64,000 nucleotides of DNA from an uncultured bacterium (GCA_964473525.1 CAYYPK010000031.1:7820-71819); one strand, 5' to 3'. Positions 24,626 through 57,162 are shown, counted from the first letter of the stretch. The notes: generated from the letters alone by a model not told the origin. Numbers and translations: made by a program.

Positions 24626-26602
24626 CTACCAGAACCACACGACGTACAGCGGCCGTCGCACGATGACGCTCAGTATCGACCAGTAGCTCCCTGCGGCCAC
24701 GTCTCCCAGCACCAGACCCAGGAAGAACGGCAACGTCCGCCGGTAGAGACCCACGCCGCCGGACTTCAGCACTGCGAACTTCACGCCGGCCGCCACGAGC
24801 ATGACGAGCCAGAAGTGGTCCAATGAGCCGCCGTTGATGCCGATCGCGTATCCGACGGGGTGCAGCGGCCACCAGAGGAACTTCGTGCGCAGGATGCCCA
24901 GCGTAAGCGTGAACGCCAGCCCGGCCAGGATGGCAATGCAGCCGTTCGTGTCTGGATCACGTGGGAACTGGAGGGATGCAGCGAGACGGTTGTACACCGC
25001 GGCGGCCGGGCCCAACACCTGTCCTGGCGCGTCGACGGCCACTTCCGCGCCGTAGTGGTAGAGCGCGGACAGGTACACCACGAACGCGACGAGAACGGCA
25101 GGTACGATGACGGCAGCCATGAGCGCGGTCGTTCGCGCCGGCGCCAGACCCGCGCGCTGCGACAGCTTCATCCCCTCCAACTGGTGTGGCATCGGGTGGC
25201 TGCGGTTGGAGCCGTTGAACCACGAAAACAGTGCGAACGCCGCCAAGTTGCGGGGGCCGAGGGGTCGTTCCCCTACGACGGACGTGATGGCCGTCTGTGG
25301 GTTCACGCCGCTCATGTCGTGGACCGGCGGCCCAAGCTCGGCGCGGATGCGCGTGACCCCTATCGCGATAACGAGATAGAGGGAGAAGAACGAGACGAAC
25401 ACGCCGGTGGACATGCCTGCCTTCACGCAGAGAAGGTACAGCGCCGCCAGACACACGATGATCCCGACCGCCGCCGCGCGGTACCGGATCGGCTCGCCGT
25501 CGTCTATGTTGCGCCCGCCGCGTCCGAAAACCCGCGTTCGCACGGCTCGCCAATGTCCCCGCCCACCCCACATCGCGATCCCGCAGATCGCGGTCACTCC
25601 CCCTAAGGCTTGATGCGCCTGGAACGGGTAGTAGGGGATCGTTGACAGGCCGGTCGCCGCGCCCGCGACCAGTTGCGCCTTGCGCACCCAGTAGAACGCC
25701 GCGGTGCTGAAGCTCATGTCGACCGGGAGCAGGTAGCACAGCCCGAGCAGGAATAGCCGGACATGGACGTACGTGACGCCAATGGCGTTCCAGGGCGAGT
25801 CCGTGACCCACAGACCCATATCCGAGGTAGGCTCGCGTATGGGGATGCGGGGGAACGTCGGGTATAGGTGGTTGATCCCGTTGACGATGTCGACCGCCGC
25901 CGCGAGCGAAAACCCGATCCACATGGGCTTGCTCCGGAGCAGGCCCGCTCCCGGGTTGGTGAGGTCGAGTGGGAGTTGCACGATAGGATAGGGAAGCTTC
26001 TCCTGGTCGATCCACCGTTTGCGCACGAGGCTGTTCACGAGCAGGACGAGCGTGAACGTCAACGTGGCAACCGCCGTCCAGGCGAGGATCGGTGTGACCC
26101 AGTGGCGGAGTACCTCGACGCGCAGGAAGCGACCGCCGCCCTCGTAGAACGGGCGCGTGGCCTCCATGCGATCCATCACCAACCACCTGGGCAGTAGCGG
26201 GTGTAGCAACTCGCGCCATTCGTTCTCCGGCGTCGCATACCAGAAGGCGTGCGTGAAGAGCCCCATCAGGCTGACCATGCTGTCGTGCGCGATCACCGCG
26301 GTAGTGGTCGCCAGCACGACGTAAATGAGCATCAGCTCATGCTGGGACAGAGCAGCCGCTGGCAGGATCCGACGTAGCGCCTGGTTCACGAGCGCCAGGA
26401 CGAAGACGATGAAGATCACGTTGAGCGGGATGGATGTCGCCGAGAAGTGGAACCCGTGCCACACCATCTCTACGAGCGCGATCCAGTGCGCGTTGGCCGG
26501 CAGAAGCAGCATCGCGATGGCCACGGCGCGCCACCGGACGGGGCGCCCAGACGACGTAGGCGGGACATGCCGCGTCGCTTGGCGTTCCGTCTTGGCGTCC
26601 AT
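24626..26602 (-). CDS. polytopic membrane protein, paralog P1 of an unrecognised ~650-aa family
   Basis: 658-aa product with many hydrophobic segments. It is paralogous to ORFs 27031..28929 and 55120..57162, sharing a …[EK]KL[PS]YP[IL][IV]QLPL[DE]LT… block and the …SHPMPHQLEG…/…TMPHQLEA… block. Confidence 0.6.
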   Translation of the reverse strand: MDAKTERQATRHVPPTSSGRPVRWRAVAIAMLLLPANAHWIALVEMVWHGFHFSATSIPLNVIFIVFVLALVNQALRRILPAAALSQHELMLIYVVLATTTAVIAHDSMVSLMGLFTHAFWYATPENEWRELLHPLLPRWLVMDRMEATRPFYEGGGRFLRVEVLRHWVTPILAWTAVATLTFTLVLLVNSLVRKRWIDQEKLPYPIVQLPLDLTNPGAGLLRSKPMWIGFSLAAAVDIVNGINHLYPTFPRIPIREPTSDMGLWVTDSPWNAIGVTYVHVRLFLLGLCYLLPVDMSFSTAAFYWVRKAQLVAGAATGLSTIPYYPFQAHQALGGVTAICGIAMWGGRGHWRAVRTRVFGRGGRNIDDGEPIRYRAAAVGIIVCLAALYLLCVKAGMSTGVFVSFFSLYLVIAIGVTRIRAELGPPVHDMSGVNPQTAITSVVGERPLGPRNLAAFALFSWFNGSNRSHPMPHQLEGMKLSQRAGLAPARTTALMAAVIVPAVLVAFVVYLSALYHYGAEVAVDAPGQVLGPAAAVYNRLAASLQFPRDPDTNGCIAILAGLAFTLTLGILRTKFLWWPLHPVGYAIGINGGSLDHFWLVMLVAAGVKFAVLKSGGVGLYRRTLPFFLGLVLGDVAAGSYWSILSVIVRRPLYVVWFW

Positions 26603-26647
26603 GCTGCCTCCACGTCGCGCCGCGCGCGTGTGCCGGATGCGGCTCGC

Positions 26648-27010
26648 CTACGACACGGAGATCACCAGGATTCGCATGTCAGCGTCCGACGTGTTCTCCA
26701 GCCCATGCTCGCCGCCGGGGTACACGGCGGTGATGTCTCCCGGCCCCACCTCGTGGCGCTGACCGTCGAGTGTCATGGCGCCCGTCCCGCTGACGACATA
26801 GTAGTACTCCTCGTCGTCCTCGTGCCGATGGACGCCGATGGAGACGCCTGGTGGAAGGATGTCGTCGTGGATGAAGTTCACGTGGCGGCCTTGCGTCTCG
26901 CGGCCGTCGAGGACGCGCGTCCAGTCGAGGGCGCCTTCGCCGCCGTGGCATTCCGGGAGCGGCGCGCGTGCCATTTCGTCGCGCTTCTTGATGAGGGTCG
27001 TACCCGCCAT
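26648..27010 (-). CDS. cupin domain protein
   Basis: 120-aa product MAGTTLIKK… with both cupin motifs (GVHRHEDDEEYYYVVSG and PGGEHGLEN). The track ORF (401 aa) is an N-terminal over-extension. Met 27008-27010 lies 20 bp downstream of the stop of the upstream gene and is preceded by a GAGAGGA Shine-Dalgarno. Confidence 0.75.
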   Translation of the reverse strand: MAGTTLIKKRDEMARAPLPECHGGEGALDWTRVLDGRETQGRHVNFIHDDILPPGVSIGVHRHEDDEEYYYVVSGTGAMTLDGQRHEVGPGDITAVYPGGEHGLENTSDADMRILVISVS

Positions 27011-27030
27011 AGGGATCCTCTCAGCGTCCG

Positions 27031-28929
27031 CTAGAGGTCGAGGGTGATGTACATGGACCGGTCCAGGACCATCGTCATCGTGCCCCAAAACATAGTGACA
27101 ACGCACTCCCCCAGCGCCAGGCCGAGGAAGAACGGAAGGTACCGGCGGTACGCGCGGAAGCCACCGAAGGTGAGTGTCGCCCACTTCGCCACCGACGCCG
27201 TGAAGATCGAGAACCAGAACACGTTCATGGTGTACGTCGTCGAGACGGCGTAGCCGGCGATGTGGAGCGGGAACCAGACGAACTTGGCTCGGAGTACCGT
27301 AACCAGGAACGCCATCCCCGCGCCCACTGTCGCCGCCGACGTGGCCGCGCCATCGGGCGGCAGAGGGTTGGTCAGCCAGCGCTCGAGCCGTGTGAACGCC
27401 TCCCAGCCTACAAACCCCGTAAACATCCCGTTCTGATACGCGGTGTGGAGGTACGCCCATACGGCGATCGGTACGCCTACGCCCACCGCCATGGCCAGCG
27501 CCCGACCGAACTTGCGGTTGTCGATGCGCGTGCGCTCGGCGATCTTCAACGCCTCCAGCTGGTGCGGCATCGTCAGCCAGTCGTACGACCTGTTGAAGAA
27601 CATGAGGTACGTCATCGCCGTCAGGTTCGACTTGCCGAGGCGTTGGGAGCCGAAGGCGGCGTAAAGCATCGTGCCCGGGCCGCCGTAGTGGAGGTCGTGA
27701 ACCGGCGAGCCGAGCTCGGCGCGCATGCGGGTGATCCCTGTCACCAGGGCGTAGAAGAGCGCGAAGAACGCGGAGATCACCCAGAACGACATGCCCGCGC
27801 GGTAGCAGAAGATGCCGATGTACGCCTGGCACAGGACAATGAGGACGATGCACGCTCGATACCCAAGCGGCTCCCGGGCGTCATCCAGCGTCGATCGCGC
27901 TCCTACGACCTTCCTCGCGACCTGCCGGAAGTACCCCCTGCCCGTCCACAACGCCATGAGGGTGATGCCCATGAATGCGCCCGCCGACTGTTGGGTGGCG
28001 TAAGGGAATTCCGACGGCAGCCCAAGCGCGCGACCCAGGACGGCCTGGGCCTTCCACAGCAGGTAGAAGAACCAGCAGGAAAACGCTAGGTCCAGAGGGA
28101 TGGCGAAGGCGAGACCCAGAGCGAACGGGTAGATGCCGATGGGGAACCAATCGACCGCGTTCCAGGGGCGGGTCACGAAGTAGCGCGCGATGTTGTACTG
28201 TCGGATGCCCCATATGCGCGGGACGGCGGGGAAGTGGTAGTTCAGCCCGTTGATGACGTCTATGGACGCCGCGAGGGCGAAGCCTGCCCACATGTACCGG
28301 TTCTGTAGGAACCGCTCCGAGGAGTGTGTGAGTTCCAGGGGGAGCTGGATGAGCGGGTAGCTTAGCTTTTCATGCTCGGTCCACTGTCTACGCGCGAGGA
28401 AGACTATCAGGAGCGTGGTCAGCAGCAGGGCGATGAGAAACAGTGACCAGAGGGCGAGTGGTACCGCCCATGCCTCCAGATGCGACTGGACGTACAGCGA
28501 GGAGTCGCCCTCGTAGAGGCCCGCGACCGCCGCTTTGTCCGTCACCGCCAGCCAGTCGGGGGTGGCGTCGCCGAACAAGGCGGGCCAGTCGTTCTCCGGG
28601 CTCGCCAACCACACCACGTAAGAAAGCATCGGCGGCAGCATCTGGACGCACATGTGCCCGGCGATGGAGGCCCCCATACTCACCATCGCGTATATGGTCA
28701 GGAGCTCCGCGCGCGTCAGCGCGAATGTCGGCGCGAGCCGCTTGAGGGGCAGGTTGACGACCGTGACCGCGAAGAGCGCGAAGACGGCGTTGTACAGCAG
28801 GGAGATCATCGCAGCGTGCGCGATGTCCCACTTCAGCCCGTACATGACCCAGAATACCGTGGCGACCATCAGGACGAGGCCGGCCACGAGCGCGCGCGGC
28901 GTGAGGGCCGGGCGCGCGTTGCTCTTCAT
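27031..28929 (-). CDS. polytopic membrane protein, paralog P2 of the same ~650-aa family
   Basis: 632-aa product, paralogous to P1 along its whole length. Confidence 0.6.
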   Translation of the reverse strand: MKSNARPALTPRALVAGLVLMVATVFWVMYGLKWDIAHAAMISLLYNAVFALFAVTVVNLPLKRLAPTFALTRAELLTIYAMVSMGASIAGHMCVQMLPPMLSYVVWLASPENDWPALFGDATPDWLAVTDKAAVAGLYEGDSSLYVQSHLEAWAVPLALWSLFLIALLLTTLLIVFLARRQWTEHEKLSYPLIQLPLELTHSSERFLQNRYMWAGFALAASIDVINGLNYHFPAVPRIWGIRQYNIARYFVTRPWNAVDWFPIGIYPFALGLAFAIPLDLAFSCWFFYLLWKAQAVLGRALGLPSEFPYATQQSAGAFMGITLMALWTGRGYFRQVARKVVGARSTLDDAREPLGYRACIVLIVLCQAYIGIFCYRAGMSFWVISAFFALFYALVTGITRMRAELGSPVHDLHYGGPGTMLYAAFGSQRLGKSNLTAMTYLMFFNRSYDWLTMPHQLEALKIAERTRIDNRKFGRALAMAVGVGVPIAVWAYLHTAYQNGMFTGFVGWEAFTRLERWLTNPLPPDGAATSAATVGAGMAFLVTVLRAKFVWFPLHIAGYAVSTTYTMNVFWFSIFTASVAKWATLTFGGFRAYRRYLPFFLGLALGECVVTMFWGTMTMVLDRSMYITLDL

Positions 28930-28963: not shown

Positions 28964-30088
28964 CTACTCCGGCCGCACGACGACCTTGTACGTCTCCGGC
29001 CCGCCGACCATGCCAATGCCGCGCTCCAGATCCTCAAGACCGATGTAGTCGGTGATGAGATCACCGAGCGGTGCGCGGGCGCGTTCCAGAAACGCCAAAG
29101 CCGTCTGAAACTGCATCGCGGGGTACGCCCACATCCCGTGGATGTCCACGTCCTTGTGGCAGATCAGGTGCGGCCGGATCGCTGTGGAGCCGGGGTCGGT
29201 GTAATGCCCGACTTCGATGACCTTGCCGCCACGTCGCACAAGCGACAGCGCCTCTCCGAACGCCGCCGGAACTCCCGCGCACTCGATGACCACATCCGGC
29301 CCGACCCCGTCCGTCATGTCCTGGATCTGCTGGAGGCGTTCCTCGGGAGTTGTCGTGCTGACATCGACCGTCGTGTCCGCGCCCATCTTCCTCGCCATCT
29401 CCAAGCGCGTTGGCATGGCGTCCGTGACGATGATGTCGCCTGTCCCCACCTCGCGCAGCGCCGCGATGACAAGCATGCCTATGGGACCGGCGCCCAGCAC
29501 TGCGACGCGCGATCCGATCCCCAAGCCAGCCCCGATATGCGGTATGCCGGGCGAGAACGCTCGCTCGACGGCGCGCGTGGCCACCGCAGCGGGTTCGACA
29601 AGCACCCGGAGCTTCTGCGGAACGCTTTCGGGAATGCGGAACACCCACGAGTTCCCGTGGATGTACGTGTGCCCCGCCATGGACCCGGTGAGGTGCGGCT
29701 CCTCCTCGCAGTTGGAGAACCCGTAGACGGTGCGGTTCGAGCAGAGAGCGGGTCGATGCGGGACATGCAGGCAATACCAGCAACGGCCGCAGCTCTTGGA
29801 GCTCGGGACGATCGTCACTTCGTCGCCTTCCTTCACGGGGCCGCCGACGACGTTCATCGCGTCGTTCGCGCGTGGACCCATGCTCTCGACGACGCCCAGC
29901 GTTTCGTGTCCGGGAATCAAGGGGAAGTTGACCGCCGAGTGTCCCTCGAACATGTGCTTGTCGCTGCCACAGATGCCGACCTCGACGTTGCGCATGATGA
30001 GCGCGTCGTCCGCCGGATCCGGAGTCGGGTACTCGCGTAGGTCAATGTCGTGGGCGGCGCGCATGACCGCCGCTTGTGTAGCGCCCAT
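28964..30088 (-). CDS. zinc-dependent alcohol/polyol dehydrogenase (MDR family)
   Basis: Catalytic and structural zinc motifs are present (…GICGSDKH…, …GHETLGVV…, CGRCWYC). Rossmann motif VLGAGPIG. Confidence 0.85.
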   Translation of the reverse strand: MGATQAAVMRAAHDIDLREYPTPDPADDALIMRNVEVGICGSDKHMFEGHSAVNFPLIPGHETLGVVESMGPRANDAMNVVGGPVKEGDEVTIVPSSKSCGRCWYCLHVPHRPALCSNRTVYGFSNCEEEPHLTGSMAGHTYIHGNSWVFRIPESVPQKLRVLVEPAAVATRAVERAFSPGIPHIGAGLGIGSRVAVLGAGPIGMLVIAALREVGTGDIIVTDAMPTRLEMARKMGADTTVDVSTTTPEERLQQIQDMTDGVGPDVVIECAGVPAAFGEALSLVRRGGKVIEVGHYTDPGSTAIRPHLICHKDVDIHGMWAYPAMQFQTALAFLERARAPLGDLITDYIGLEDLERGIGMVGGPETYKVVVRPE

Positions 30089-30152: not shown

Positions 30153-31007
30153 TCAGCCCAGTCTTGCCGCCTGCTCTCGCAGATAGGCGATGCTGATCTC
30201 CACGGCCTCGTCCTCTTCCCACTGACTGCTGAGGCAGTCTACCTCGACGGCGAACGTGCCCTCGTAACCGGCGTTGTCCAGCGCCTTCATGACGCCGGGT
30301 ACGTCAACGAGACCGTGTCCTGCTGGGACGCTCTCCCACCAGTCCCACTCGCTCGGTGAACCGCCGCGGGTCGGCATGAGATCCTTGATGTGCGTCGCGT
30401 GCGTGTGATCCGCCAGAAGGCGCGCCGCCTCGACCGGATCTTCGAACCTCCGCAGGCAGTTACCCGTGTCGAAGTTGACCCCCAGGTGGTCGGAGCCCAC
30501 CGCCTCGATGAGACCCAGGATCTCCGCTGCTGTGTAGTCGATGTGGTTCTCGACCGCCAGGATCACGCCCTTGTCCTCGGCGATGGCGGTTGCGGTCTTG
30601 AGCATAGCGGTGAGCTTCTCGAGTTGCGGGCCGTGCGGCTCGTCGCGGAACATGAGACTGCTGGCGACGATCCGCATCACGTCGGCGCCCAGGGCGACCG
30701 CGGTGTCGATATGTCGGATCATGTCGCGCAGTTCGGCGTCATTCCCTCCCGCCTCGAGGCCGTCGGGATGTCCCCATGCCGCGACGCGTTCGATCCCAGC
30801 GTTGTCCAGCATCGCCTTGAGGTTGGCCAGGTACGCGGCGTCGAACTGCGGGAAGAAGCAGAGCTCCAGCGAAACGCCATCCACGTCGAGCTCGATCGCG
30901 CGCCGTACGAAGTCGTCCGTGGTCCATCTCGTGCCGGGATCGGTCTGGCTGTCGTACACCTCGCCGAAGTAGCGATGGTAGCAGTAGCTGTCTACGCCGA
31001 TCTTCAT
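30153..31007 (-). CDS. sugar phosphate isomerase/epimerase (xylose isomerase-like TIM barrel)
   Basis: 284-aa product with the typical …LAVENH…/…HIKD… pattern of this TIM-barrel family. Confidence 0.8.
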   Translation of the reverse strand: MKIGVDSYCYHRYFGEVYDSQTDPGTRWTTDDFVRRAIELDVDGVSLELCFFPQFDAAYLANLKAMLDNAGIERVAAWGHPDGLEAGGNDAELRDMIRHIDTAVALGADVMRIVASSLMFRDEPHGPQLEKLTAMLKTATAIAEDKGVILAVENHIDYTAAEILGLIEAVGSDHLGVNFDTGNCLRRFEDPVEAARLLADHTHATHIKDLMPTRGGSPSEWDWWESVPAGHGLVDVPGVMKALDNAGYEGTFAVEVDCLSSQWEEDEAVEISIAYLREQAARLG

Positions 31008-31037: not shown

Positions 31038-32231
31038 TCAGTGGGATATCGTGACGCGCGCTCCAGATTCCGCTGAGCGCAACACGGCGTCGAGTACCTG
31101 TTGGTTCTTCCATCCGTCGTAGAAGTCGGGCTGCGGGTCGGTGTCCTCGTGGATGGCGCGGACGAAGTCCGCCACCTGGTGCACGAACGTGTGCTCGTAG
31201 CCTATCGCGTGACCGGGTGGCCACCAGGCGGCGACGTACGGGTGCGCCTCGTCCGTTGTGAGGATGGTGCGGAAGCCTTGGGCGCCAGCGTCGTCCTCGC
31301 GCGAGTAGAACTCGAGCTCGTTCATCCGCTCGAAGTCGAACACAATGCTGCCCTTGCTGCCGTAGATTTCGAAGCGGTTGTGGTTACGGCGGCCAGGCGC
31401 AAACCGGGTGGCTTCGAATGTCCCTACGGCTCCGTTCTCGAATCGGGCTAGGAACGACGCGGTGTCTTCCACCGTGACTTCGCCGGTCTCCACCCCGCCC
31501 TCGGCCGTCAGCATGGTTGTCAGCTCGCCCGTCTCCTGCGGCAGAGGGCGCTCCGTGATGAAGTTGTGGGTTTGCCCCGTGACCTCGGTGATCTCGCCGA
31601 CCAGGTACCGCGCCAGGTCGACCAGATGTGCGTTGAGGTCGCCGTGGGCGCCGGAGCCAGCCGTCTCCGCCCGGAGCTTCCAGATGAGTGGGAAGTCCTC
31701 GTCGACGATCCAGTCCTGCAGGTAGGCGCCGCGGAAATGGAAGATGCGGCCGATCTTGCCTTCCTCGATCAGGCGCCGCGCGTACGCCACCGCCGGCACA
31801 CGTCGATAGTTGAACACGATCATGTGCTTCACGTTCGCCGCGCGGACAGCGTCCAGCATCTCGCGGGCCTCGGCCTCGTTGAGCGCCATCGGCTTCTCAA
31901 GGAGCACGTGCTTGCCGGCCCGCGCAGCGGCGACGGCGATGTCCCGGTGCGTGTTCTGCGGTGACGCTATGTCGACAATGTCGATGTCGTCCCGCTCAAT
32001 GACGCGTTCCCACGACGTGTCAGCCTCCTCCCATCCCCACGCGTCCGCAGCCGCTTGGAGAGGGGCTTCGCTGCGACCACAGATGACCTTCATGACGGGC
32101 TTCGCGTCGCAGGGAAAGAAGAAATCCGCGTCCTTGTAGGCATGGGAGTGCGCCTTCCCCATGAACCTGTAGCCGATCAGCGCGACGTTCAGTTCCGAGG
32201 GCACGAGGCGCCTCCTCTTCCGGCGGGTCAC
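31038..32231 (-). CDS. Gfo/Idh/MocA family oxidoreductase
   Basis: N-terminal NAD(P)-binding segment (…VALIGYRFMGKAHS…) and …GKHVLLEKPMA… characteristic of the family. Confidence 0.85.
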   Translation of the reverse strand: MTRRKRRRLVPSELNVALIGYRFMGKAHSHAYKDADFFFPCDAKPVMKVICGRSEAPLQAAADAWGWEEADTSWERVIERDDIDIVDIASPQNTHRDIAVAAARAGKHVLLEKPMALNEAEAREMLDAVRAANVKHMIVFNYRRVPAVAYARRLIEEGKIGRIFHFRGAYLQDWIVDEDFPLIWKLRAETAGSGAHGDLNAHLVDLARYLVGEITEVTGQTHNFITERPLPQETGELTTMLTAEGGVETGEVTVEDTASFLARFENGAVGTFEATRFAPGRRNHNRFEIYGSKGSIVFDFERMNELEFYSREDDAGAQGFRTILTTDEAHPYVAAWWPPGHAIGYEHTFVHQVADFVRAIHEDTDPQPDFYDGWKNQQVLDAVLRSAESGARVTISH

Positions 32232-40200: not shown

Positions 40201-40268
40201 GCTGCCGCCGCCCTCGCGCGTGTCGCGCATCGGCCTTGGCAGCAAACGATAGGGAGTTCGCAGGACGC

Positions 40269-47951: not shown

Positions 47952-50900
47952 ATGCGGAAGATAGACACTCCTCGGACCCGGCGATCCCTGTCCTTGCGCC
48001 GCGCGCCGATCGTGGCGTGGTGCGTCCTCCTGCTCGTAGCAACTCTCCATCACGCGCACGCGCAACGCCTGGACCTCACCCTGTCCGAAGACGCCGAAGC
48101 GATACGCCGCGCTGTCGGTATGGACAACATCAAGCGCGACATCGCCAGGCTCACTGCGCTCGAAAGCCGAGTAAGTGGCTTCCCGGGCGCCGATAGCGCG
48201 TCCAAGTACGTCTTTGATCGGTTCCAGGAGATCGGCCTCGACGACGTCGAGACGCGCACCTTCACCATGACCGTGCCGATGGAGCACGGGCTCGGGTCCA
48301 TGGTCGTCCGAGATGCGGACGGCGCCGAGATACGCCAGATCGACGTTCGGGCCGTGTGGCCCAATCTCGTACGCACCTCCTTCCTGCCGAACGGGCTGAA
48401 GCACACTGTCGAGAGTGGGCACACGCTCGAGTGGATAGGCGCCGCCTACCAGGTGGATCCAGCCGACATCGTAGCGGACATGCGCAACCAGGCTCTCCGT
48501 AACCAGCGCACCGACGGTCTGGACAACGACAACGACGGCCTGGTGGACGCCGCGGACCCCGACGGTGAAGTGACGCCCGTCGAAGGCACGTCCATCTTCG
48601 TTCCCACGGGCGGCCTGCAAGGTCGGCTCATCTACGGTAGCAGGTCCGCGCTACGCAACTACGACGGCAAGGAAGTTGGCGGGTTCTGGCACTCCGTGAG
48701 CCCAGACGACACGCTCGACGGCGTCGCTCGCAGATACCGTGTCACCCCCGGTAGCATCCTTGACGACGTCCTGAACCTGCACCTGAGCCGCAGCCAGGAC
48801 GGGATCGACAACGACGCCGACGGCGAGATCGACGAGGACGGCGAGATCGACCCGTTCGCGGTGATCGCCGCGTGGGCGTCCGACGGGGTCGACAACGACG
48901 GCGACGGGATGATCGACGAGGCCGCCGACAAGGACCTGGCGAAGACATCGGAGGCGTCCGTCTTCATCCCGCGCGGCTCGATCGTGCTGGCGGACTTCAA
49001 CTCCAGCACCAACTGGATCAACGCCGCGATGCTCGGCGCGCAGGCGGTCCTCTTCATTGAGCCAGAGGACACGATCCGTGGCGAGGCCGAGAACAAATAC
49101 CTTACCGTACCGGCGAACCTGCCCCGATTCTGGATCGGTAAGGCCGACGCCGACGAACTCCTGGAGATCCTGGGCGAGGATGGCGGGGCGTCCGTCTATC
49201 TGTCCGCCCAGCTCACCGCCGACGTGCGCTGGGAGCGGCGTCCGGCCCAGAACGTGCAGGGCATCCTGCCCGGCGCCGACCCGGTGCTTCGTGACGAGCT
49301 GATCGTCGTCCAGAGCTACTACGACTCCATGTCCGTTGTGCCGTCCCTGGCGCCTGGGGCGCAGACGACATCCGGCATCGCGTCGATGTTCGAGTTGGCG
49401 CGCCTCCTGAAGCAGCCGGAATTCCGGCCGGCGCGTTCGGTGCTGTTCCTGGCGACGGGAGGTCATTTCCAGGGCCTCAGCGGCATGCGCGCCTTCATGG
49501 AAGGCCTGAGCCAGGACAACGTTGAGACGATGCGCGAGATGCGCCGCGACCTCAACCAGGACGTCATTGAGTTCCAGGAACTCGGCCGCAAGATGGCCCT
49601 CTCGATCGACCGCGGCTACCTTGTCGAGTTTCCGCCCGCGTTCTTCCACCGTGTCGAGGACATCGCGACGGACCTCGATTCGGTCGTCAGCAGCCTGAAC
49701 GACCTCGCCGCCGCACAGCGACAGGTAGACCGGCTAGCTGAGGCGCAGCGCGCGGACAAGGAAGAGCAGCGCAAGCGTAAGACGGCGGACCTCTCGAAGA
49801 ACCGCGACGCACAGAACTTCACCGAGGAGGAACGCGCGCTCCTCAACGTTCACCTCGCTCGCGCCGAATTCCTTGGCCTGCAGACTGCCCAATTCCTCAA
49901 GGACGTAACACGGCGCATCGGGGACCTGAAGGTCATCGGCCTTCTCAAGTCGCGCGAGACCGAGCGGCAGATTCTGAACGACGTCGCGATCCCTATCGCC
50001 CAGTTGGACGTGTGGGCGATGGCTCAGGTCCGCGCCATCGCGGAAAGCGGCCAGGTTGGCGACGGCTATTCGCGGGACCGCGCCGATAGCTTGCTGCCGT
50101 ACGAGGACCGCGCGGCGCCTCCCGCGGCTGCTCTCAACACCATGCAGCCGGTGGTGATCCCCGGCTTCGGCGAACTCGATCCCAGGGACGCGTTCGATCA
50201 TCTGGCCAGCCCTGGCGTGCTGGACGAGTGGGAGATCGTGAAGGGCCGAGTCTCCACCCTCTACATTCCCGACAAGGTTCTCGGACGCCATCTGAACGCT
50301 GTTGAGCTAGGGCGCCTACGACGCGCCGCGAAGACGCTGAACGAACGGGCGTCCGGGTCGGACTACGCTAAGACGCGCAACGATCTCCTCGCGAAGGCTC
50401 TGGCGGCAGCGCAAGGGTACGCAGGGGCGGCGGGCGACATCGCGACGATCCAGGGGGCGCTGCAAGCGGGGTCGTTCCGCGCGATCCGCCCCGCCCTCGC
50501 GCGATACCTGACCGACGACGAGATGCGCGGGGCCGAGGCGAGCTTCGCCGAGCTCCAGGACGGCGCCGAATACGCTGCCGAGGAGTTAGCGCACTTCCTG
50601 AACATCGCGGAGCGGCGGCTCGAGCAGGAGGGGCCGCGACTCGAGAGCCTCCTCAGCGCGGCGCAGTCCGGCGCCCTCAACCGCGCCTTCCGCGCGGAGG
50701 AGCAGCTGGCGCTTGCCAATCATCTCACCCAGGCTGACCAGGATGGGCTAGCGGGCGCGCACGAGCAGCTCGTCGCGGAGTACGACCACGAGACGTATCT
50801 CGGCGTGGCGGAGGCCCGCGCGCGCAACGACGTGCTGGAACTCGCGCAGCTACAGCGTCTCGTCCCGACGATGGAGCGCGCCTTCACCGAGGGCGAAAAG

Positions 50901-53900
50901 CGACTCCTTCGCACGAACCTGATGACCATGCGGAACTCACGCGTCCGCAACGTCCACAAGCGCATTGAGCGCCTGTCCCGCATCGACCCGGTGGTGTATC
51001 AGGAGCGCGTCGCTGGCGTCATTCAGTCCATCCAGCTGCAGCAGGAACTCGGCCGCTACTACCAGTCCCTTGTCGTGTCGTTGGACCTCTCGACGCAGAG
51101 CGACGGCTTCGGCGTCTTCTACAAGGGCTCGTTCTACGACGACAACCGCGAATTCGAGCTACGTCGCGAATACGCGCCCATCGGCAACAAGCTGATGGAG
51201 TATGCGACGAACGCCAACCTGAAGCGCAACCTGGAAGCCCTACGTCGCTTCCCAGACGACCACGTCCGGCAGGCGATCTTGTCCAGCCAGTGGGGCGTCG
51301 CCGACCGCGTGAACACCGTCGAAGCGCTCGAAGGCAAGACGCTCGAGACGCTCGTCTTCGACTACTACGACACGCTCGTCACGCTGGGTGGCGTCAGCCG
51401 CCTCATGAAGCTGCAGTTCGAGGACATGCGGCAAAAGGGCGAGCCGTCCAAGACGATGCTCAAGGACATCGACTACATCCGCAAGGAGGTCAGTCGGTTC
51501 GTCCGCAACGACATTCGCGAGGCGCGTCGGCGCCGCAAGTCCACGAAGCGCCTGTTCGCGCGCGTCGAGAAGATGCTCGCGCTCAAGAGCCGACCCATCG
51601 AAGGGCTGTCGGACGACGAGATCAACGACCTGCGCAGCCTCATGGCGATGGCGGGCATCGAGTCCGAGACGAACTTCGTCAACGCCATCAGCGCCAGCGG
51701 CGGTAAGACCTGGCAGACGTATATCCCAGGCAAGATGGCGTTCGACAGCGAGGTCGCCACGCTCTCCGGCAAGACGGGCATGACCTTCGCGACCATCGAC
51801 GACGGACGGGTGTACACGGACACGCCACTCGACACCTACGACCGGCTGAACTTCGACAACCTGGAAGCGCAGGTTCAGACGCTGGCGTCTGTTCTGGTGC
51901 AGATGCTCCGCGACCCGAAGATGCCGACATCCGCGCGGGTCGGGAACTTCTATACGGCGCTGTCCGGCCGCGTTGTCGAATACGACGCCCGCGAGAGCGC
52001 CGTCCCGCAGACTCCGGTGCAGAACGCCATCGTCGCCGTGCGACGCAAGACGAAGACCATGATGGGCGTGCGCGGGGATCTGTACGTGCTCGGCGACCAG
52101 AAGGGCCGATACACGCTGGCTGGCCTGGCGATGGAAGGCCGCGCGACGACGCGTCCGAAGGGCACGCAGGAGGTAGAGGCGTTCGTCCTCGACCCAGACT
52201 CGGGCGACATCGTCTATGCCCCCGACCTCGGCGAGTTCGGCGCGAAGTTCTATCCGAACCTCGTTCCCATGAACCGCCGCCGCGTCGGGGCCAACATCGT
52301 CGCGTTTCCGTGCGTCAGCACGACGATTTACGACCTCGTCGACCAACGGTACATGCGTACGCTCACGTCCTTACAGGTGTACGATTCCACCCGCGACGCG
52401 CCGCCGCAGCGGTACGGCATCTCGCGCCCGTGGATACAGCCGCTGGTGTCCGCCGCGGAGCCCATCGCGCTCGTCTATTCCGAGCCGGACTCCCGCATCA
52501 AAATCAGCATGGCGTCAGGCCTGTTGGGCAAGCTCCTGCTGCTCATCAAGGCCACCGGCACGAACGTCGACAACCCCACGCTCTACACGGGTGAAGGGTT
52601 CGTCGTCCGCGAGAACGGGTCGATCCGCGTGACGCCGTACGTGGTCGTGAAGGACATGTGGAATCTCGATGAGGCGCGCATCGGCCTCTACACGCGCTAC
52701 GGCATCAGCAACAAGCGTCTGGAGGAGTTGCACGGCGAAGCGCAACGGCTGCTAGAGAAGGCTGAGCGTGACTTGGCCGCGAACGAATATACCGCGGCCC
52801 TGAAGAAAGCGCGCGCCGCTTGGGGCAACGAGTCCATCGCCTACCCTGACGTCAAGGCGACCGGCAACGATGTCGTCCGGGGCGTCATGTTCTACCTGTT
52901 CCTGCTGCTCCCGTTTGCGATGTTCGGCGAGCGCCTTCTGTTCGCGGCGACGAACATCAACAAGCGCATCGGTTACACGTTCGGCATCTTCCTGCTCGTG
53001 TTCTTCTTCCTCAGCCAGGTGCATCCGGCCTTCGAGATTGCCGAGACGCCGTTCATCATCCTTATCGCGTTCATCGTGCTTGCGCTGACGGTGGTCGTCA
53101 TCACCATCATCATCCGCAAGTTCAACGAGCAGCTCGAGAAGATGCGGCGTGAGAAGTCGAAGATCTACAAAGCGGACGTCGGGCGGCTGTCGGCCAGCGC
53201 CGCCGCGTTCTCGCTGGGCATCTCCAACATGCGGAAGCGCAAGGGCCGCACGCTGCTGACCTGCGCGACGTTGGTGGTGCTGACGTTCACGGTGATTTCA
53301 TTCACGTCCGTGCGCACGGAGATTCGCGCGCATTCGACGCGCATCCCAGGGGTCACGCCGAACTATCAGGGCGTGCTGATTCGCGACCAATACTGGCGGC
53401 CGCTCGAAGAGCCGGTCGTCGACGGCTCGCGCACGAACTTCCTCAGCGCGACCATCGCGGCGCGTATCGAGGGCGCGATGCAGAACATCGACGTGACCAG
53501 CTACGTCGCCCCGCGCGCTTGGTACGAAGCGGCGAGCGTCGGCAACCAGTCGGCGGTTGTCATCGATAGCCTCGTCGAGGATGACACGAGCTACACCGTG
53601 AACATGCTCGTGGGCATGTCGCCCGACGAGAAGCACGTCACGCGCATCCACTCGAAGCTCGCCTACGGTCGGTGGTTCGAGGACGACGAGCTAGACGCCT
53701 ATGTGTGCGTGCTGCCCAAGGGCGTGTCGGATTCCCTCGGCGTCACTGAGGAGCAGGTCGTCAACGGCGACGCCAAGGTGCGCATCTTGGGCGCCGAGTT
53801 CCTGGTCGTGGGCGTTCTCGGGATCGACTTCAAGGAGCTGACGGACCTCGACGGCGAGGAACTGACCCCCGTTGACTACACGCTCTTGCAGCAGCAGCAG

Positions 53901-55070
53901 CAGCGCGGTTCGCAGGACTCGACCCTCGAGGGTGAGCTGCAGAAGTACCAGCATCTGCCGCCCGACGCCATCGCGGTCCTCCCGTACCAGATCGTCGTGG
54001 ACTCCGGCGGCAACGTGAAGTCCGTCGCCGTGAACATGGAGGATGTGCAGGGCGAGCTGCCAGCGGGCGTGACCGTCGGCGACAAGATCGACGCCATCAT
54101 GTCGCCAGTGATGAAGCGCTCCGGCTTGGACTACTTCGTCGGGAAGGGGCGCAACGTCTTCCTATACAGCTCCATCGGCGGCACGTCCACGGAGCAGATG
54201 AGCAACCTCGCGGTGCCGATCATCATCGCCGCGCTGATCGTCCTCAACACGATGCTCGGCGCGGTCTACGAGCGTGTGCGCGAAATCGGAATCTACAGCG
54301 CCGTCGGCTTGGCGCCGGTGCACATCGCCTTCCTCTTCATGGCTGAGGCGTGTGTGTATGCCGTCCTCGGCGCTGTATTGGGTTACCTGCTGGGTCAGAT
54401 GACCGCCTGGACGCTCGTGCAGACAGGCTGGCTGGCGGGACTCACTCTGAACTACTCCGCGCGATCCACGGTCTACGCGACGATGATCGTCATGTTCGTG
54501 GTGTTGGCGTCGACTATGTATCCGGCGATCAAGGCCGGGCGCATGGCCGTGCCGGACATTGAGCGCAAGTGGCGCCTCCCCGAGCCGGACGGAGACGAAT
54601 GGCATTTCGACCTGCCGTTCACGGTTCTCGGTGAGGAGGCCCTTGGTCTCAACATCTTCATGCGGGACTACTTCGAGGCTCACGCGGACGAGTCGGCGAG
54701 TGACTTCTACGCGGACGATGTCAGCTTCCGACGGGAGACGCCGGAGGGCGCGGAGGACGAGGAGTACGCCTGCGAGATGATGGTGTGGTTGGCGCCGTAT
54801 GACTTAGGCGTAAGCCAGCGCGTCAGCCTCCAGACAACGGCCGTCGGCGGCGAGGAAGAGGAGCTCTTCCGCATCCACTTGGTCGTCTACCGCGAGAGCG
54901 GCGAGATCGCTTCGTGGAAGCGCGTCAACCGACGCTACCTGAACCTGATTCGCAAGCAGTTGCTTATCTGGCGCACGTTCAACGTCGAGTTGCGTGGCGA
55001 ATTCCACGCGCGTGGACGCGACGAGACCGAACGCATGGCGGGTGCCACCCCGGAATTCGCGTCCGACTGA
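47952..55070 (+). CDS. giant fusion protein: signal peptide + degenerate M28-peptidase-like (transferrin-receptor-like) ectodomain + Asp-rich Ca-binding-type repeats + long coiled-coil region + 3 TM + FtsX/MacB-type ABC permease
   Basis: M28-like block …LIVVQSYYDSMSVVPSLAPGAQTTSGIASMFELARLL…RSVLFLATGGHFQGLSGMRAF, with the canonical HxDS / GAxDDxSG / EE zinc-ligand positions substituted. DxDxDG-like repeats (DGLDNDNDGLVDAAD, DGIDNDADGEIDEDGEID, DGVDNDGDGMIDEAAD). FtsX-like first TM …ISNMRKRKGRTLLTCATLVVLTFTVISF…, large periplasmic domain, and C-terminal 3-TM FtsX core …IYSAVGLAPVHIAFLFMAEACVYAVLGAVLGYLLG…. Confidence 0.7.
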   Translation: MRKIDTPRTRRSLSLRRAPIVAWCVLLLVATLHHAHAQRLDLTLSEDAEAIRRAVGMDNIKRDIARLTALESRVSGFPGADSASKYVFDRFQEIGLDDVETRTFTMTVPMEHGLGSMVVRDADGAEIRQIDVRAVWPNLVRTSFLPNGLKHTVESGHTLEWIGAAYQVDPADIVADMRNQALRNQRTDGLDNDNDGLVDAADPDGEVTPVEGTSIFVPTGGLQGRLIYGSRSALRNYDGKEVGGFWHSVSPDDTLDGVARRYRVTPGSILDDVLNLHLSRSQDGIDNDADGEIDEDGEIDPFAVIAAWASDGVDNDGDGMIDEAADKDLAKTSEASVFIPRGSIVLADFNSSTNWINAAMLGAQAVLFIEPEDTIRGEAENKYLTVPANLPRFWIGKADADELLEILGEDGGASVYLSAQLTADVRWERRPAQNVQGILPGADPVLRDELIVVQSYYDSMSVVPSLAPGAQTTSGIASMFELARLLKQPEFRPARSVLFLATGGHFQGLSGMRAFMEGLSQDNVETMREMRRDLNQDVIEFQELGRKMALSIDRGYLVEFPPAFFHRVEDIATDLDSVVSSLNDLAAAQRQVDRLAEAQRADKEEQRKRKTADLSKNRDAQNFTEEERALLNVHLARAEFLGLQTAQFLKDVTRRIGDLKVIGLLKSRETERQILNDVAIPIAQLDVWAMAQVRAIAESGQVGDGYSRDRADSLLPYEDRAAPPAAALNTMQPVVIPGFGELDPRDAFDHLASPGVLDEWEIVKGRVSTLYIPDKVLGRHLNAVELGRLRRAAKTLNERASGSDYAKTRNDLLAKALAAAQGYAGAAGDIATIQGALQAGSFRAIRPALARYLTDDEMRGAEASFAELQDGAEYAAEELAHFLNIAERRLEQEGPRLESLLSAAQSGALNRAFRAEEQLALANHLTQADQDGLAGAHEQLVAEYDHETYLGVAEARARNDVLELAQLQRLVPTMERAFTEGEKRLLRTNLMTMRNSRVRNVHKRIERLSRIDPVVYQERVAGVIQSIQLQQELGRYYQSLVVSLDLSTQSDGFGVFYKGSFYDDNREFELRREYAPIGNKLMEYATNANLKRNLEALRRFPDDHVRQAILSSQWGVADRVNTVEALEGKTLETLVFDYYDTLVTLGGVSRLMKLQFEDMRQKGEPSKTMLKDIDYIRKEVSRFVRNDIREARRRRKSTKRLFARVEKMLALKSRPIEGLSDDEINDLRSLMAMAGIESETNFVNAISASGGKTWQTYIPGKMAFDSEVATLSGKTGMTFATIDDGRVYTDTPLDTYDRLNFDNLEAQVQTLASVLVQMLRDPKMPTSARVGNFYTALSGRVVEYDARESAVPQTPVQNAIVAVRRKTKTMMGVRGDLYVLGDQKGRYTLAGLAMEGRATTRPKGTQEVEAFVLDPDSGDIVYAPDLGEFGAKFYPNLVPMNRRRVGANIVAFPCVSTTIYDLVDQRYMRTLTSLQVYDSTRDAPPQRYGISRPWIQPLVSAAEPIALVYSEPDSRIKISMASGLLGKLLLLIKATGTNVDNPTLYTGEGFVVRENGSIRVTPYVVVKDMWNLDEARIGLYTRYGISNKRLEELHGEAQRLLEKAERDLAANEYTAALKKARAAWGNESIAYPDVKATGNDVVRGVMFYLFLLLPFAMFGERLLFAATNINKRIGYTFGIFLLVFFFLSQVHPAFEIAETPFIILIAFIVLALTVVVITIIIRKFNEQLEKMRREKSKIYKADVGRLSASAAAFSLGISNMRKRKGRTLLTCATLVVLTFTVISFTSVRTEIRAHSTRIPGVTPNYQGVLIRDQYWRPLEEPVVDGSRTNFLSATIAARIEGAMQNIDVTSYVAPRAWYEAASVGNQSAVVIDSLVEDDTSYTVNMLVGMSPDEKHVTRIHSKLAYGRWFEDDELDAYVCVLPKGVSDSLGVTEEQVVNGDAKVRILGAEFLVVGVLGIDFKELTDLDGEELTPVDYTLLQQQQQRGSQDSTLEGELQKYQHLPPDAIAVLPYQIVVDSGGNVKSVAVNMEDVQGELPAGVTVGDKIDAIMSPVMKRSGLDYFVGKGRNVFLYSSIGGTSTEQMSNLAVPIIIAALIVLNTMLGAVYERVREIGIYSAVGLAPVHIAFLFMAEACVYAVLGAVLGYLLGQMTAWTLVQTGWLAGLTLNYSARSTVYATMIVMFVVLASTMYPAIKAGRMAVPDIERKWRLPEPDGDEWHFDLPFTVLGEEALGLNIFMRDYFEAHADESASDFYADDVSFRRETPEGAEDEEYACEMMVWLAPYDLGVSQRVSLQTTAVGGEEEELFRIHLVVYRESGEIASWKRVNRRYLNLIRKQLLIWRTFNVELRGEFHARGRDETERMAGATPEFASD

Positions 55071-55119: not shown

Positions 55120-57162
55120 GTGGCTCGATCAAGACGTAAAGGGGAATCGCTAGCCGAGGAGATGCAATCCTGGGCAAAGCGATACGACACGGACGAAGGT
55201 ATCCGCACCTTCGAGTCCGGGCTAAGCGTCAAAGTCCTCCTGGGCGCGGCTTTCGTCGGCTTCCTGATGATGCCCGGCGCCATCTACCTGACCCTACAGA
55301 CCGGTGGCGCGGCGGGCGGGGCCGCTGCCCCGTGGGTAGCCGTCATTCTCTTCACGGAGATTGCGCGACGCTCCTTCCAGACCGCCAAGCGGCAGGAACT
55401 CTACATCCTGCTGGCCCTCACGGGGGCTGCGGTGAACGCTGGCGGGCAGTATTACGGCTACATCATGGACTCGTACTTTATCAACTCGCAGCAAGCCGAG
55501 TCGTACGAGATCGCCGACAAGATACCTGACTGGGCCATCGCGCCCAAGGACTCCAGGGCGCACGCAGACCGATCTCTATTCCACAAAGACTGGTGGCGCG
55601 GCGCTAGGAGCGAGGCGCGCGTGTTCGGGTTCCCCATCGGCCCCATCACCCTGATGCTCCTGTTGCAGGTGTTGGGACGGCTCCGGCACATATCAGGCAG
55701 TTACTTCCTGTTCAGGGTGTGCGCGGACTTCGAGAAGTTACCGTACCCAATGGCGCCCGTGAGCGCCCAGGGGGCCACTGCGCTCGCGGAGAGCACCCAC
55801 AAGACGGAGACCTGGAGGTGGAGGGTCTTCAGTATTGGCTCCATTATCGGGATGGGTTGGGGAGCCATCTATGTCGGGGTGCCCCAAATCAGCGGCGCCC
55901 TAGGCATGTCGGAGCCGTTGCGCATCATCCCCATTCCGTTCATCGACTTCACGCAGAGCATTGAGGCGTTCGCGCCGACCGGGACGTTCGCTATCACGAC
56001 GGACGCCAGCGCGATACTCACTGGCTTCGTGATGCCCATTCCCGTCGTGGTCGCCCAATTCGTGTCCGCTTCGTTTACGCAGTTCCTCCTCAACCCGTTC
56101 CTGTACCGGCAGGACATCCTGCACACGTGGGAACCGGGGATGGACGTGCGCATCACAGGCCTGCGCAACAGCCTCGACTTCTGGATGAGCTTCGGCTACG
56201 GGAAGACCTTCTCGTTCGCCGTCCTCGGGCTCGGCACCGTCATCATCATGTTCGCCAAGAGAGGCAACAAGAAGGAGGTCGGCGCGGGGAGTTGGGCGGC
56301 GCCTCCTGGACGCGGCGATTTCCCCATCTGGCTGGCCCTCATCATGTGGGGTCTTGGGATGGGCGGCTATGTCTACGTCGTGCACAAGCTGATCCCAGGC
56401 TTCCCGCTCGCGTTCCTGATGGGCTTCGCGTTCCTCTACACCCCGCTGAACTCCTACATCAGCGCCCGAACCTTCGGCATCATGAGCCGCGACCTGTTCG
56501 ACATCCCGTACATCAAGGAAGCCACGTTCATCCTGAGTCGATACGATGAGATCGACATATGGTTCGCGCCGTTCCCAAGCGAGGACTACGGCACGGAGAC
56601 ACAGGGGTGGCGCATCCTCGAGCTGACCGGCACGACCTTCACAAGTAAGATCGCGGCTGACCTGCTTGCCTGGCCGGTACTGCTGATCGCCGGTATCGTG
56701 GCGTGGCATTTCATCTGGAAGCTGGCGCCGATTCCGTCTGCGCAGTACCAGTTCGCGCAGATGATGTGGCCTCTGTTCGCAACGAACCGAGCGTTGTGGA
56801 TCACGGCTCTGCGGGATGGTCACTCCGAGCAGTTACAGGCCATCCGACCGACGTACATTCTCGCGGGCTTCGTCATATCGTTGGGCATCTACGGACTAAC
56901 CGTCGTGTCCCGCATTCCATACCGTCACATTGCAGGTTACGGGGTCATCGGGGGCCTCGGCGCCGACCCGGGTATGTTCTTCCTCCAGTTCATTGGCGCG
57001 ATCGTTGGCCGCTACGTGATGATCAAGCGCTTCGGGCGTAACCGATGGGCGCGGTACAACCCGGTGCTGCTAGCTGGGTTCTTCTGCGGCATGGCGCTGG
57101 TGGGTATGGCGGGCGTCGCGATCGACCTGATACAGAAGTCGGTCATCGTGAAGCCGTTCTGA
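55120..57162 (+). CDS. polytopic membrane protein, divergent paralog P3 of the P1/P2 family
   Basis: 680 aa with a GTG start and a GGGAGCGAG Shine-Dalgarno. It shares …FEKLPYPMAP… and the overall hydrophobic pattern with P1/P2, and lies 49 bp downstream of the giant ORF. Confidence 0.55.
   Translation: MARSRRKGESLAEEMQSWAKRYDTDEGIRTFESGLSVKVLLGAAFVGFLMMPGAIYLTLQTGGAAGGAAAPWVAVILFTEIARRSFQTAKRQELYILLALTGAAVNAGGQYYGYIMDSYFINSQQAESYEIADKIPDWAIAPKDSRAHADRSLFHKDWWRGARSEARVFGFPIGPITLMLLLQVLGRLRHISGSYFLFRVCADFEKLPYPMAPVSAQGATALAESTHKTETWRWRVFSIGSIIGMGWGAIYVGVPQISGALGMSEPLRIIPIPFIDFTQSIEAFAPTGTFAITTDASAILTGFVMPIPVVVAQFVSASFTQFLLNPFLYRQDILHTWEPGMDVRITGLRNSLDFWMSFGYGKTFSFAVLGLGTVIIMFAKRGNKKEVGAGSWAAPPGRGDFPIWLALIMWGLGMGGYVYVVHKLIPGFPLAFLMGFAFLYTPLNSYISARTFGIMSRDLFDIPYIKEATFILSRYDEIDIWFAPFPSEDYGTETQGWRILELTGTTFTSKIAADLLAWPVLLIAGIVAWHFIWKLAPIPSAQYQFAQMMWPLFATNRALWITALRDGHSEQLQAIRPTYILAGFVISLGIYGLTVVSRIPYRHIAGYGVIGGLGADPGMFFLQFIGAIVGRYVMIKRFGRNRWARYNPVLLAGFFCGMALVGMAGVAIDLIQKSVIVKPF

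Follow-up and report, generated by a model that had tools for sequence, protein, structure and literature searches.

Two DUF6785/DUF6784 Paralogs and a Remote Homolog from an Uncultured Bacterium as Very Divergent Members of the Oligopeptide Transporter Superfamily

A 64,000-nucleotide stretch of DNA from an uncultured bacterium (GCA_964473525.1 CAYYPK010000031.1:7820-71819), referred to below as the window, encodes three related polytopic membrane proteins, here called P1, P2 and P3. The fold and homology of these proteins identify them, with very high confidence, as very divergent members of the oligopeptide transporter (OPT) superfamily, which also takes in the Yellow-Stripe-like (YSL) transporters (TC 2.A.67). 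P1 and P2 are paralogs in the Pfam families DUF6785 and DUF6784, while P3 comes from a sister family whose homology to the P1/P2 family extends over the whole length; both families are tied to bona fide OPT proteins by profile comparisons and by the fold of the barley YS1 protein (HvYS1). The overall explanation that we favor is probable, though well short of certain: all three would be ion-coupled transporters of the OPT type, with P1 and P2 importing a carbohydrate-like solute and P3 acting with an adjacent ATP-binding cassette (ABC) machine.

Relationships among P1, P2 and P3 and their family placement

A first-pass annotation of this DNA had described three polytopic membrane proteins of about 650 amino acids (aa) that can be aligned along their whole length, with P3 as the most divergent. 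All three open reading frames (ORFs) proved to be intact. P1 is a 658-aa protein encoded on the minus strand at 24626..26602, P2 is its 632-aa paralog, also on the minus strand, at 27031..28929, and P3 is a 680-aa remote homolog with a GTG start, encoded on the plus strand at 55120..57162. The window contains no further member of either family. The window is chromosomal, containing rpoC, rpoB, and the genes for PNPase and an aconitase-family protein, and has a G+C content of 65.5%. P1 is identical to a database protein, and the named proteins most closely related to P1 and to P3 belong to the sponge symbionts Candidatus Poribacteria.

The ranking of P3 as the outlier was reproduced, and so was the whole-length relationship. 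A BLASTP comparison aligns P1 and P2 end to end, with 34% identity over 641 columns (E 3e-121), while P3 yields only weak collinear patches against P1 or P2 (E 0.064 and 0.008). Narrow profiles of the two families (A1 and A2) gave no connection between P1/P2 and P3, with an hhalign probability of 0.2%, and reciprocal hmmsearch between the families gave E values of ~0.01-0.1, the matches falling consistently around a region with the motif EKLPYP. A P3-family profile was then searched against 1.84 billion representative proteins, which returned 1153 relatives with E<=1e-3, of which 479 had E<=1e-30, and a diverse P3-superfamily alignment (A5) was built from 78 representatives at 50% clustering. 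When A5 was compared by hhalign with an alignment of 110 sequences of the P1/P2 family (A3), the two matched with 99.3% probability and an E value of 7e-21 over 572 columns, joining residues 13-649 of P1 to residues 26-673 of P3. The link is visible only because the P3 alignment was made diverse, and the whole-length relatedness of P3 to P1 and P2 is therefore demonstrable from a diverse family profile rather than from the three sequences alone.

P1 and P2 each belong, over their full length, to two adjoining Pfam families, DUF6785 (PF20581) and DUF6784 (PF20580), and thus do not represent the unrecognized family that had been proposed. P1 scores 481.3 bits with DUF6785 (residues 23-518) and 94.7 bits with DUF6784 (residues 556-654), and P2 scores 497.7 and 98.3 bits, against gathering cutoffs of 25 bits for DUF6785 and 26.4 bits for DUF6784; the corresponding E values run from 1e-144 to 1e-149 and from 1e-27 to 1e-28. 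The architecture, in which an N-terminal DUF6785 domain of ~500 aa is followed by a DUF6784 domain of ~100 aa, recurs with both domains in 34/34 aligned relatives, and NCBI labels relatives as "DUF6785 family protein". No functional or fold assignment was found for either entry, and a literature search returned no paper that mentions DUF6785 or DUF6784. P3 matches neither of these models nor any other in Pfam or NCBIfam, and hence is not a DUF6785/DUF6784 member.

The connection to OPT (PF03169; gathering cutoff 25.8 bits) is made through relatives of the three proteins. P0006, with 60% identity to P1, reaches 31.3 bits in a match to OPT positions 310-590, and P0187, with 45% identity to P3, reaches 37.5 bits; two further relatives, P0017 (30.4 bits) and P0177 (28.9 bits), also lie above the cutoff. 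Within the P3 superfamily, P0298 reaches 64.2 bits over positions 99-620 of 623, and P0302, P0340 and P0316 reach 42.0, 33.7 and 33.0 bits, the last spanning positions 36-622; P0298 and P0316 are among the more distant members. Relatives of both families thus resemble the prokaryotic homologues in Pfam OPT and TC 2.A.67, with scores of 31-64 bits and matches that in some cases are nearly full length. Since A5 holds such OPT-passing proteins together with P3, at 24-65% identity, and is itself joined to the P1/P2 family by hhalign, both families are homologous at the profile level to bona fide OPT members.

Predicted structures led to the same superfamily. The solved representative of OPT, HvYS1, forms homodimers and transports by an elevator mechanism coupled to protons; it is built of a core domain and a scaffold domain, both of them inverted repeats (PMC9691689). 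Its features include the conserved proton-site aspartates D446, D490 and D494 and a cysteine pair, C250-C671, at the dimer interface. AlphaFold2 models made with the family alignments were confident, with a predicted local distance difference test (pLDDT) score of 92.4 and a predicted template-modeling (pTM) score of 0.92 for P1, and 88.7 and 0.88 for P3. Foldseek searches with the predicted models, a check that had been recommended at the outset, matched HvYS1 alone. Against the PDB, the P1 model found HvYS1 (7WST/7WSR) at E 2.5e-8 with template-modeling (TM) scores of 0.62/0.67, and the P3 model found 7wst_A at E 4.2e-10 with TM scores of up to 0.59/0.66. HvYS1 was the sole significant fold for both models, the next matches having TM scores of ~0.1, and both models have the fold of this solved OPT member with its core and scaffold domains.

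Several observations weigh against so distant a placement. P1, P2 and P3 themselves have no match to Pfam OPT at E<=1, which bears out the statement that they could not be placed by simple sequence inspection and leaves them outside strict OPT membership; they lie under the detection limit of that model, with P1 and P2 in separate Pfam DUFs and the P3 family lacking a model of its own. They share no more than 11-14% identity with HvYS1. When the PDB was queried by sequence with A1, A2, A5, P0187, P0006 and P0298, nothing was returned even at E<=10. At this level of identity the three proteins are unlikely to be orthologs within the YS1/YSL clade, and they differ from HvYS1 in being bacterial and in having no nicotianamine- or phytosiderophore-type genes found nearby. 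The first-pass annotation had named in advance a confident match to a well-characterized transporter family, for example OPT, with conserved functional residues, as the outcome that would lessen the novelty of the family; a link to OPT was obtained at the superfamily level, through the scores of relatives and the HvYS1 fold, and not at the level of the strict Pfam model.

The missing OPT match, the empty PDB sequence searches and the absence of the two DUFs from the literature search would also suit a wholly new membrane-protein family, unrelated to known transporters. We regard this as extremely improbable and have rejected it, given that Pfam DUF6785 and DUF6784 already cover P1 and P2, that relatives pass the OPT cutoff, that hhalign joins the families with 99.3% probability, and that the Foldseek match to HvYS1 is both unique and strong.

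By analogy with the OPT superfamily, confidence is high that P1-P3 would function as transporters, and low to moderate as to the direction of transport and the substrate. The characterized OPT members are all cation:solute uptake symporters, and the 2011 survey of the family listed no prokaryotic member that had been biochemically characterized (PMC3061005). Prokaryotic OPT proteins thus resemble P1-P3 in that their substrates are guessed from genomic context, one prokaryotic subcluster (4C) being predicted in this way to handle xylan oligosaccharides (PMC3061005). P1, P2 and P3 would be inner-membrane, elevator-type secondary transporters of a small organic solute, coupled to an ion gradient that is probably one of protons.

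The shared blocks of sequence turned out to be of two kinds. The EKLPYP block is in register in all three, as E201-K-L-P-Y-P206 in P1 (25985..26002, minus strand; E, L, Y and P show little or no variation in the family), E187-K-L-S-Y-P192 in P2 (28354..28371, minus strand) and E205-K-L-P-Y-P210 in P3 (55732..55749, plus strand). Two other blocks, NAIGVTYV... and ...MPHQLE..., occur only in P1 and P2. About 30 conserved positions common to both families are spread over the whole length, including (P1|P3) E89|E93, P138 and W140|P136 and W138, W168|W158, R418|R450, K479|[KR]498 and a C-terminal series of glycines. The shared charged positions E89/E93, E201/E205, R418/R450 and K479/[KR]498 may lie in or near the transport path.

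In the P1 model, EKLPYP comes after R194-K195-R196, where the long helix 162-200 ends and before the short helix 206-214. In the second half of the protein, helix 399-423 terminates in another conserved block, T-R-I-R-A-E-L-G-P-P (417-426). The N-terminus of P1 is probably cytoplasmic, because residues 1-25 are rich in Arg and Lys and would obey the positive-inside rule. The motif E-K-L-x-[YF]-P probably sits at the cytoplasmic end of the long helix, leading into a short hairpin helix, an arrangement that in the model appears to resemble the "TM-extended loop-short helix" hairpins of the YS1 core domain. DSSP assigns ~14 long helices plus short hairpin helices to the P1 and P3 models, and a simple hydropathy scan finds 10-12 clear membrane segments; the OPT superfamily has 16 (or 17) transmembrane segments derived from internal repeats. 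An hhalign comparison of the N- and C-terminal halves detected no internal repeat (probability <4%).

The P1/P2 operon and DUF6785 genes elsewhere

P1 and P2 are encoded in a single six-gene operon on the minus strand, with intergenic gaps of 20-64 base pairs (bp). The gene order is Gfo/Idh/MocA oxidoreductase, TIM barrel, Zn-dependent dehydrogenase, P2, cupin and P1, so that the two paralogs, which had been thought to lie in different contexts, share an operon and have only a 120-aa cupin gene between them. The first gene (31038..32231, minus strand) encodes a Gfo/Idh/MocA oxidoreductase that resembles levoglucosan dehydrogenase and IolG; its score against the NCBIfam levoglucosan dehydrogenase model, 433.6 bits with a cutoff of 650, is close but below threshold, which hints at a sugar or glycoside pathway of the oxidative (3-keto) type. 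It is followed on the same strand by a xylose-isomerase-like TIM barrel (30153..31007), for which the nearest NCBIfam models are IolE and L-ribulose-5-phosphate-epimerase types, and by an IolM/HpnZ-like Zn-dependent alcohol dehydrogenase (28964..30088). All three enzymes score under the NCBIfam equivalog cutoffs. The Cupin_2 protein (26648..27010, minus strand; E 2.7e-20) is separated from its neighbors P2 and P1 by gaps of 20 and 45 bp.

These enzyme families are what an oxidative pathway for a sugar, anhydrosugar or cyclitol consists of, and no peptidase is encoded in the operon. P1 and P2 would then provide the uptake step of a six-gene catabolic operon, importing a carbohydrate-like solute (a sugar, anhydrosugar, glycoside or cyclitol), a substrate class that is weakly suggested by the co-encoded sugar- and cyclitol-type oxidoreductases. 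Since YS1 is a dimer, P1 and P2 might form a heterodimer.

Other genes in this part of the window fall outside the operon. A gene on the plus strand (21120-24614) is convergent with P1, the two stop codons lying 11 bp apart, and encodes a secreted-looking protein of 1164 aa that carries a SprB repeat and an HExxH region weakly matching M64 (IgA peptidase-like). About 10 kilobases (kb) from the operon, a minus-strand gene (12464-14287) encodes a sigma-54-dependent response regulator (REC-PAS-AAA-HTH_8), with no sensor kinase identified adjoining it. On the plus strand, a 688-aa protein (38134-40200) combines a partial adenylate/guanylate cyclase with TIR and AAA_35 ATPase regions in a signaling- or defense-like architecture; its gene is overlapped by an ORF at 39501-41435 that has no Pfam match.

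The DUF6785 family has at least 593 matches in GTDB species representatives, and the best 80 of these loci, in which neighboring genes were counted, are almost all poribacterial, often with several copies per genome. Two or three DUF6785 copies occur within ~20 kb in 16/79 loci, mostly adjacent or one gene apart. Some of these tandem copies are recent duplicates (70-85% identity) and others old ones (28-39%); the arrays do not prove a fixed heterodimer. Triple tandem arrays were seen in loci L065 (1853-7818) and L085 (8065-~14250), the copies in L065 being 73-76% identical. L065 is labeled as a Chromatiales metagenome-assembled genome, which argues that the family is not restricted to Poribacteria.

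The surroundings of DUF6785 genes elsewhere vary from locus to locus, but the neighboring genes are for the most part catabolic. One has an alpha-L-arabinofuranosidase, a sulfatase and a prolyl oligopeptidase (S9) as neighbors, another Peptidase_C69 and PhyH, and another Kelch/Tricorn-PD40 propellers with AXE1 esterases; further loci have NPCBM, GH38, Gfo/Idh/MocA and alcohol dehydrogenase genes, or DUF4838 with a cupin and a Gfo/Idh/MocA gene. In locus L175 (8001-15751), a Cache/PAS sensor histidine kinase and a sigma-54-dependent response regulator lie between two DUF6785 genes, a layout typical of substrate-induced uptake systems. A poribacterial operon (L034 4981-13116) has the order BNR, OEP, HlyD, galactokinase-like kinase, DUF6785 and PorV/PorQ-family outer-membrane protein, and a second poribacterial operon, in L049 (2622-11989), has the order BNR-OEP-HlyD-DUF6785-DUF6785, with the HlyD stop codon overlapping the start of the first DUF6785 gene. 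These contexts suggest that DUF6785 is a family of nutrient-uptake proteins that has diversified, with a leaning toward carbohydrates.

Some of the genomic context, however, runs counter to carbohydrate uptake by P1 and P2. The kinds of neighbors found in their operon are rare around DUF6785 genes in general (cupin 2/80, alcohol dehydrogenase 4/80, TIM barrel 1/80, Gfo/Idh/MocA 7/80), and the enzyme families of the operon recur several times within the window, so the adjacency of P1 and P2 to them may partly be chance. The Peptidase_C69, S9 and Tricorn/PD40 neighbors point to peptides. Finally, in L049 and the L034-type operons, with OEP and HlyD genes upstream, DUF6785 is the only polytopic inner-membrane protein, as would fit efflux. 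The association with cupins is not conserved, and a fixed DUF6785-cupin system was rejected on the same counts; neighbors of the alcohol dehydrogenase, TIM barrel, Gfo/Idh/MocA, M64-like and DUF362 kinds are likewise not conserved.

The peptide-pointing neighbors bear on a different account of all three proteins, namely that they are classical OPT-type importers of nutritional peptides ~3-8 residues long, comparable to the PT-clade OPTs of fungi and plants. A peptide role has been suggested by genome context for many prokaryotic OPTs (PMC3061005), several relatives of P3 are named "peptide transporter" by NCBI, and some DUF6785 genes lie beside Peptidase_C69, prolyl oligopeptidase S9, M28 or Tricorn/PD40 genes. 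The recurrent DUF6785 neighbors are nevertheless mostly carbohydrate-related, and the P1/P2 operon itself has only sugar- and cyclitol-type oxidoreductases and no peptidase. Nutritional peptide uptake by all three proteins is an unlikely explanation, if one that deserves to be kept in view, and the P3 cluster described below bears on it in both directions.

The operons with HlyD and OEP genes raise the opposite direction of transport. An OPT-fold protein could form the inner-membrane stage of an exporter, moving a cytoplasmic product into the periplasm, from which a MacB/FtsX machine (for the P3 cluster) or an HlyD-OEP duct (for some DUF6785 operons) would expel it through the outer membrane. 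The L049 gene order with its HlyD-DUF6785 overlap, and the position of the L034-type DUF6785 protein as sole polytopic inner-membrane protein, are what such an exporter would predict. Yet the 15 OEP-HlyD-galactokinase-DUF6785-PorV operons belong to one shallow clade (88-98% identity) and so do not lend independent support, leaving ~2 independent cases of HlyD/OEP association, and the galactokinase-like kinase and PorV-family outer-membrane protein beside DUF6785 fit uptake better. In the window, no HlyD or OEP gene occurs among the ORFs scanned against Pfam, which sets P1-P3 apart from tripartite efflux systems. All characterized OPT members, moreover, are importers (PMC3061005; PMC9691689). 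Export is distinctly unlikely by our estimate, although the P3 cluster adds two points in its favor.

The P3 cluster and its giant FtsX-type permease

P3 lies in a plus-strand cluster that begins with the gene for a giant permease of 2372 aa (47952..55070), which ends 49 bp before P3. This protein has an M28-like domain (~434-541) in its N-terminal extracytoplasmic region, a MacB periplasmic core (1771-1983) and a C-terminal FtsX domain (2090-2198). Downstream of P3 is a 313-aa protein without known family (57215..58156), which has a CxxC motif near residue 125 and no transmembrane segment. It has no Pfam, NCBIfam or PDB relative, and is conserved in the P3 cluster (34 loci) with W10, G12, W21, W51, W167 and W223 invariant. 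Its gene overlaps by 4 bp the start of a gene for a 164-aa PqqD-like protein (58153..58647), which in turn overlaps by 4 bp the gene for an ABC ATPase of the LolD/MacB/FtsE (type VII) kind (58644..59444). The best NCBIfam models for the ATPase are LolD, MacB, YbbA, DevA and FtsE, all below their equivalog cutoffs.

The M28-like domain departs from the canonical metal and catalytic residues of M28 peptidases, which lie in HxD, GAxD and EE motifs. It has YYDS in place of HxD, lacks the second Asp in the GAxD motif (GAQTT), and has GHF[QE] in place of EE; the same substitutions are found in 36/36 homologs compared (1468-2666 aa). With the canonical residues absent, the domain is probably a binding module rather than a protease, and its constancy suggests a conserved pseudo-peptidase. 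The M28-like domain and the PqqD-like protein, which has a peptide-binding fold, are the features of the P3 cluster that would favor nutritional peptide importers, but the loss of the M28 metal ligands, as judged against the M28 consensus, argues the other way. In a separate region of the giant protein (residues ~187-330; 48500-48950, plus strand), there are repeated acidic D-G-x-D-N-D-x-D-G-x-x-D-E motifs that look like calcium-binding repeats and match weakly the NCBIfam "acidic double-disulfide repeat" (31 bits, cutoff 41).

The association of P3 with this machinery is conserved. In 34 of the 47 loci with enough flanking sequence, the P3 homolog is preceded by a giant permease gene that ends no more than 600 bp away. 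Of the 31 loci flanked by 4 kb or more on each side, 28 have an FtsX-domain gene, at least 20 the ABC ATPase, at least 17 the 313-aa protein and at least 16 the PqqD-like protein, the last three counts being lower bounds from tblastn. The module recurs in at least five phyla. It occurs in loci from Poribacteria, Armatimonadota (L010, from the uncultured-genome assembly CP070648.1) and Desantisbacteria (L013), in L012, and in many metagenome contigs, and relatives of P3 are also named from Brocadiia and Firestonebacteria. The co-occurrence with FtsX/MacB permeases and PqqD-like proteins that was to be checked is therefore real and strong for the P3 family, but it does not extend to the P1/P2 family in general.

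In 6-7 loci, the FtsX/P3 cluster does include a DUF6785-type gene, located just before the giant permease, and this ties both OPT-like families to the same machinery in some lineages. Genes with DUF6785 plus DUF6784 were seen between the ABC ATPase and the giant permease in L013 (2735-4717), L156, L144, L146 and L166, and partial ones in L132 and L147.

The cluster shares its MacB core and FtsX domains, and its LolD/MacB/FtsE-like ATPase, with the type VII systems MacB, LolCDE and FtsEX; it differs from them in having no adaptor or outer-membrane factor gene within the window. MacB- and LolCDE-type systems take their substrates from the periplasmic side and do not translocate them across the inner membrane, and a dedicated inner-membrane partner such as P3 would make sense for that reason. 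We suggest that P3 most likely moves a peptide-like substrate through the inner membrane in cooperation with the neighboring type VII ABC machine, which would either receive that substrate or supply it. The fixed position of P3 beside a system that needs a separate inner-membrane step, and the DUF6785-like genes inside the cluster, are the two points that export would also claim.

A more elaborate proposal, which we put forward only tentatively and consider improbable as a whole, is that P3-type proteins are obligate partners of an undescribed envelope machine, in which a two-step route for peptide-like molecules would be served by an ATP-driven periplasmic mechanotransducer. The parts of the machine would be the giant FtsX/MacB-type permease with its M28-like binding module, the LolD-like ATPase, the PqqD-like protein, acting as a cytoplasmic peptide-binding component, and the CxxC protein. 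The OPT-fold step would cross the inner membrane and hand the molecule to the mechanotransducer or receive it from there, and DUF6785 proteins would, depending on the lineage, plug into either the FtsX module or HlyD-OEP operons. No described MacB, Lol or FtsEX system is known to have an OPT-fold partner, a PqqD-like protein or a permease of ~1500-2400 aa with an M28-like ectodomain, and a literature search for a module of PqqD, FtsX and OPT proteins found nothing relevant.

Implications for OPT-fold proteins in bacteria

P1 and P2 were already covered by Pfam DUF models, and the kind of transporter to which all three proteins belong, as divergent variants, is known. What the analysis adds is a fold and a likely mechanism, that of an OPT/YSL-type elevator transporter, for two Pfam DUFs and for a sister family that has no model. 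With no prokaryotic OPT protein characterized as of the 2011 survey (PMC3061005), a tractable operon that comes with candidate substrates should be useful. The expansion of DUF6785 in sponge-symbiont Poribacteria, with tandem arrays of two or three genes, argues that these proteins are likely a main route by which the symbionts take up organic matter derived from the host or from seawater. The module of giant FtsX permease, OPT-fold protein, PqqD-like protein and ABC ATPase is conserved across phyla and represents an undescribed system. If the proposal of an envelope machine around P3 is true, OPT-fold proteins would constitute a new class of inner-membrane component of envelope-spanning systems.

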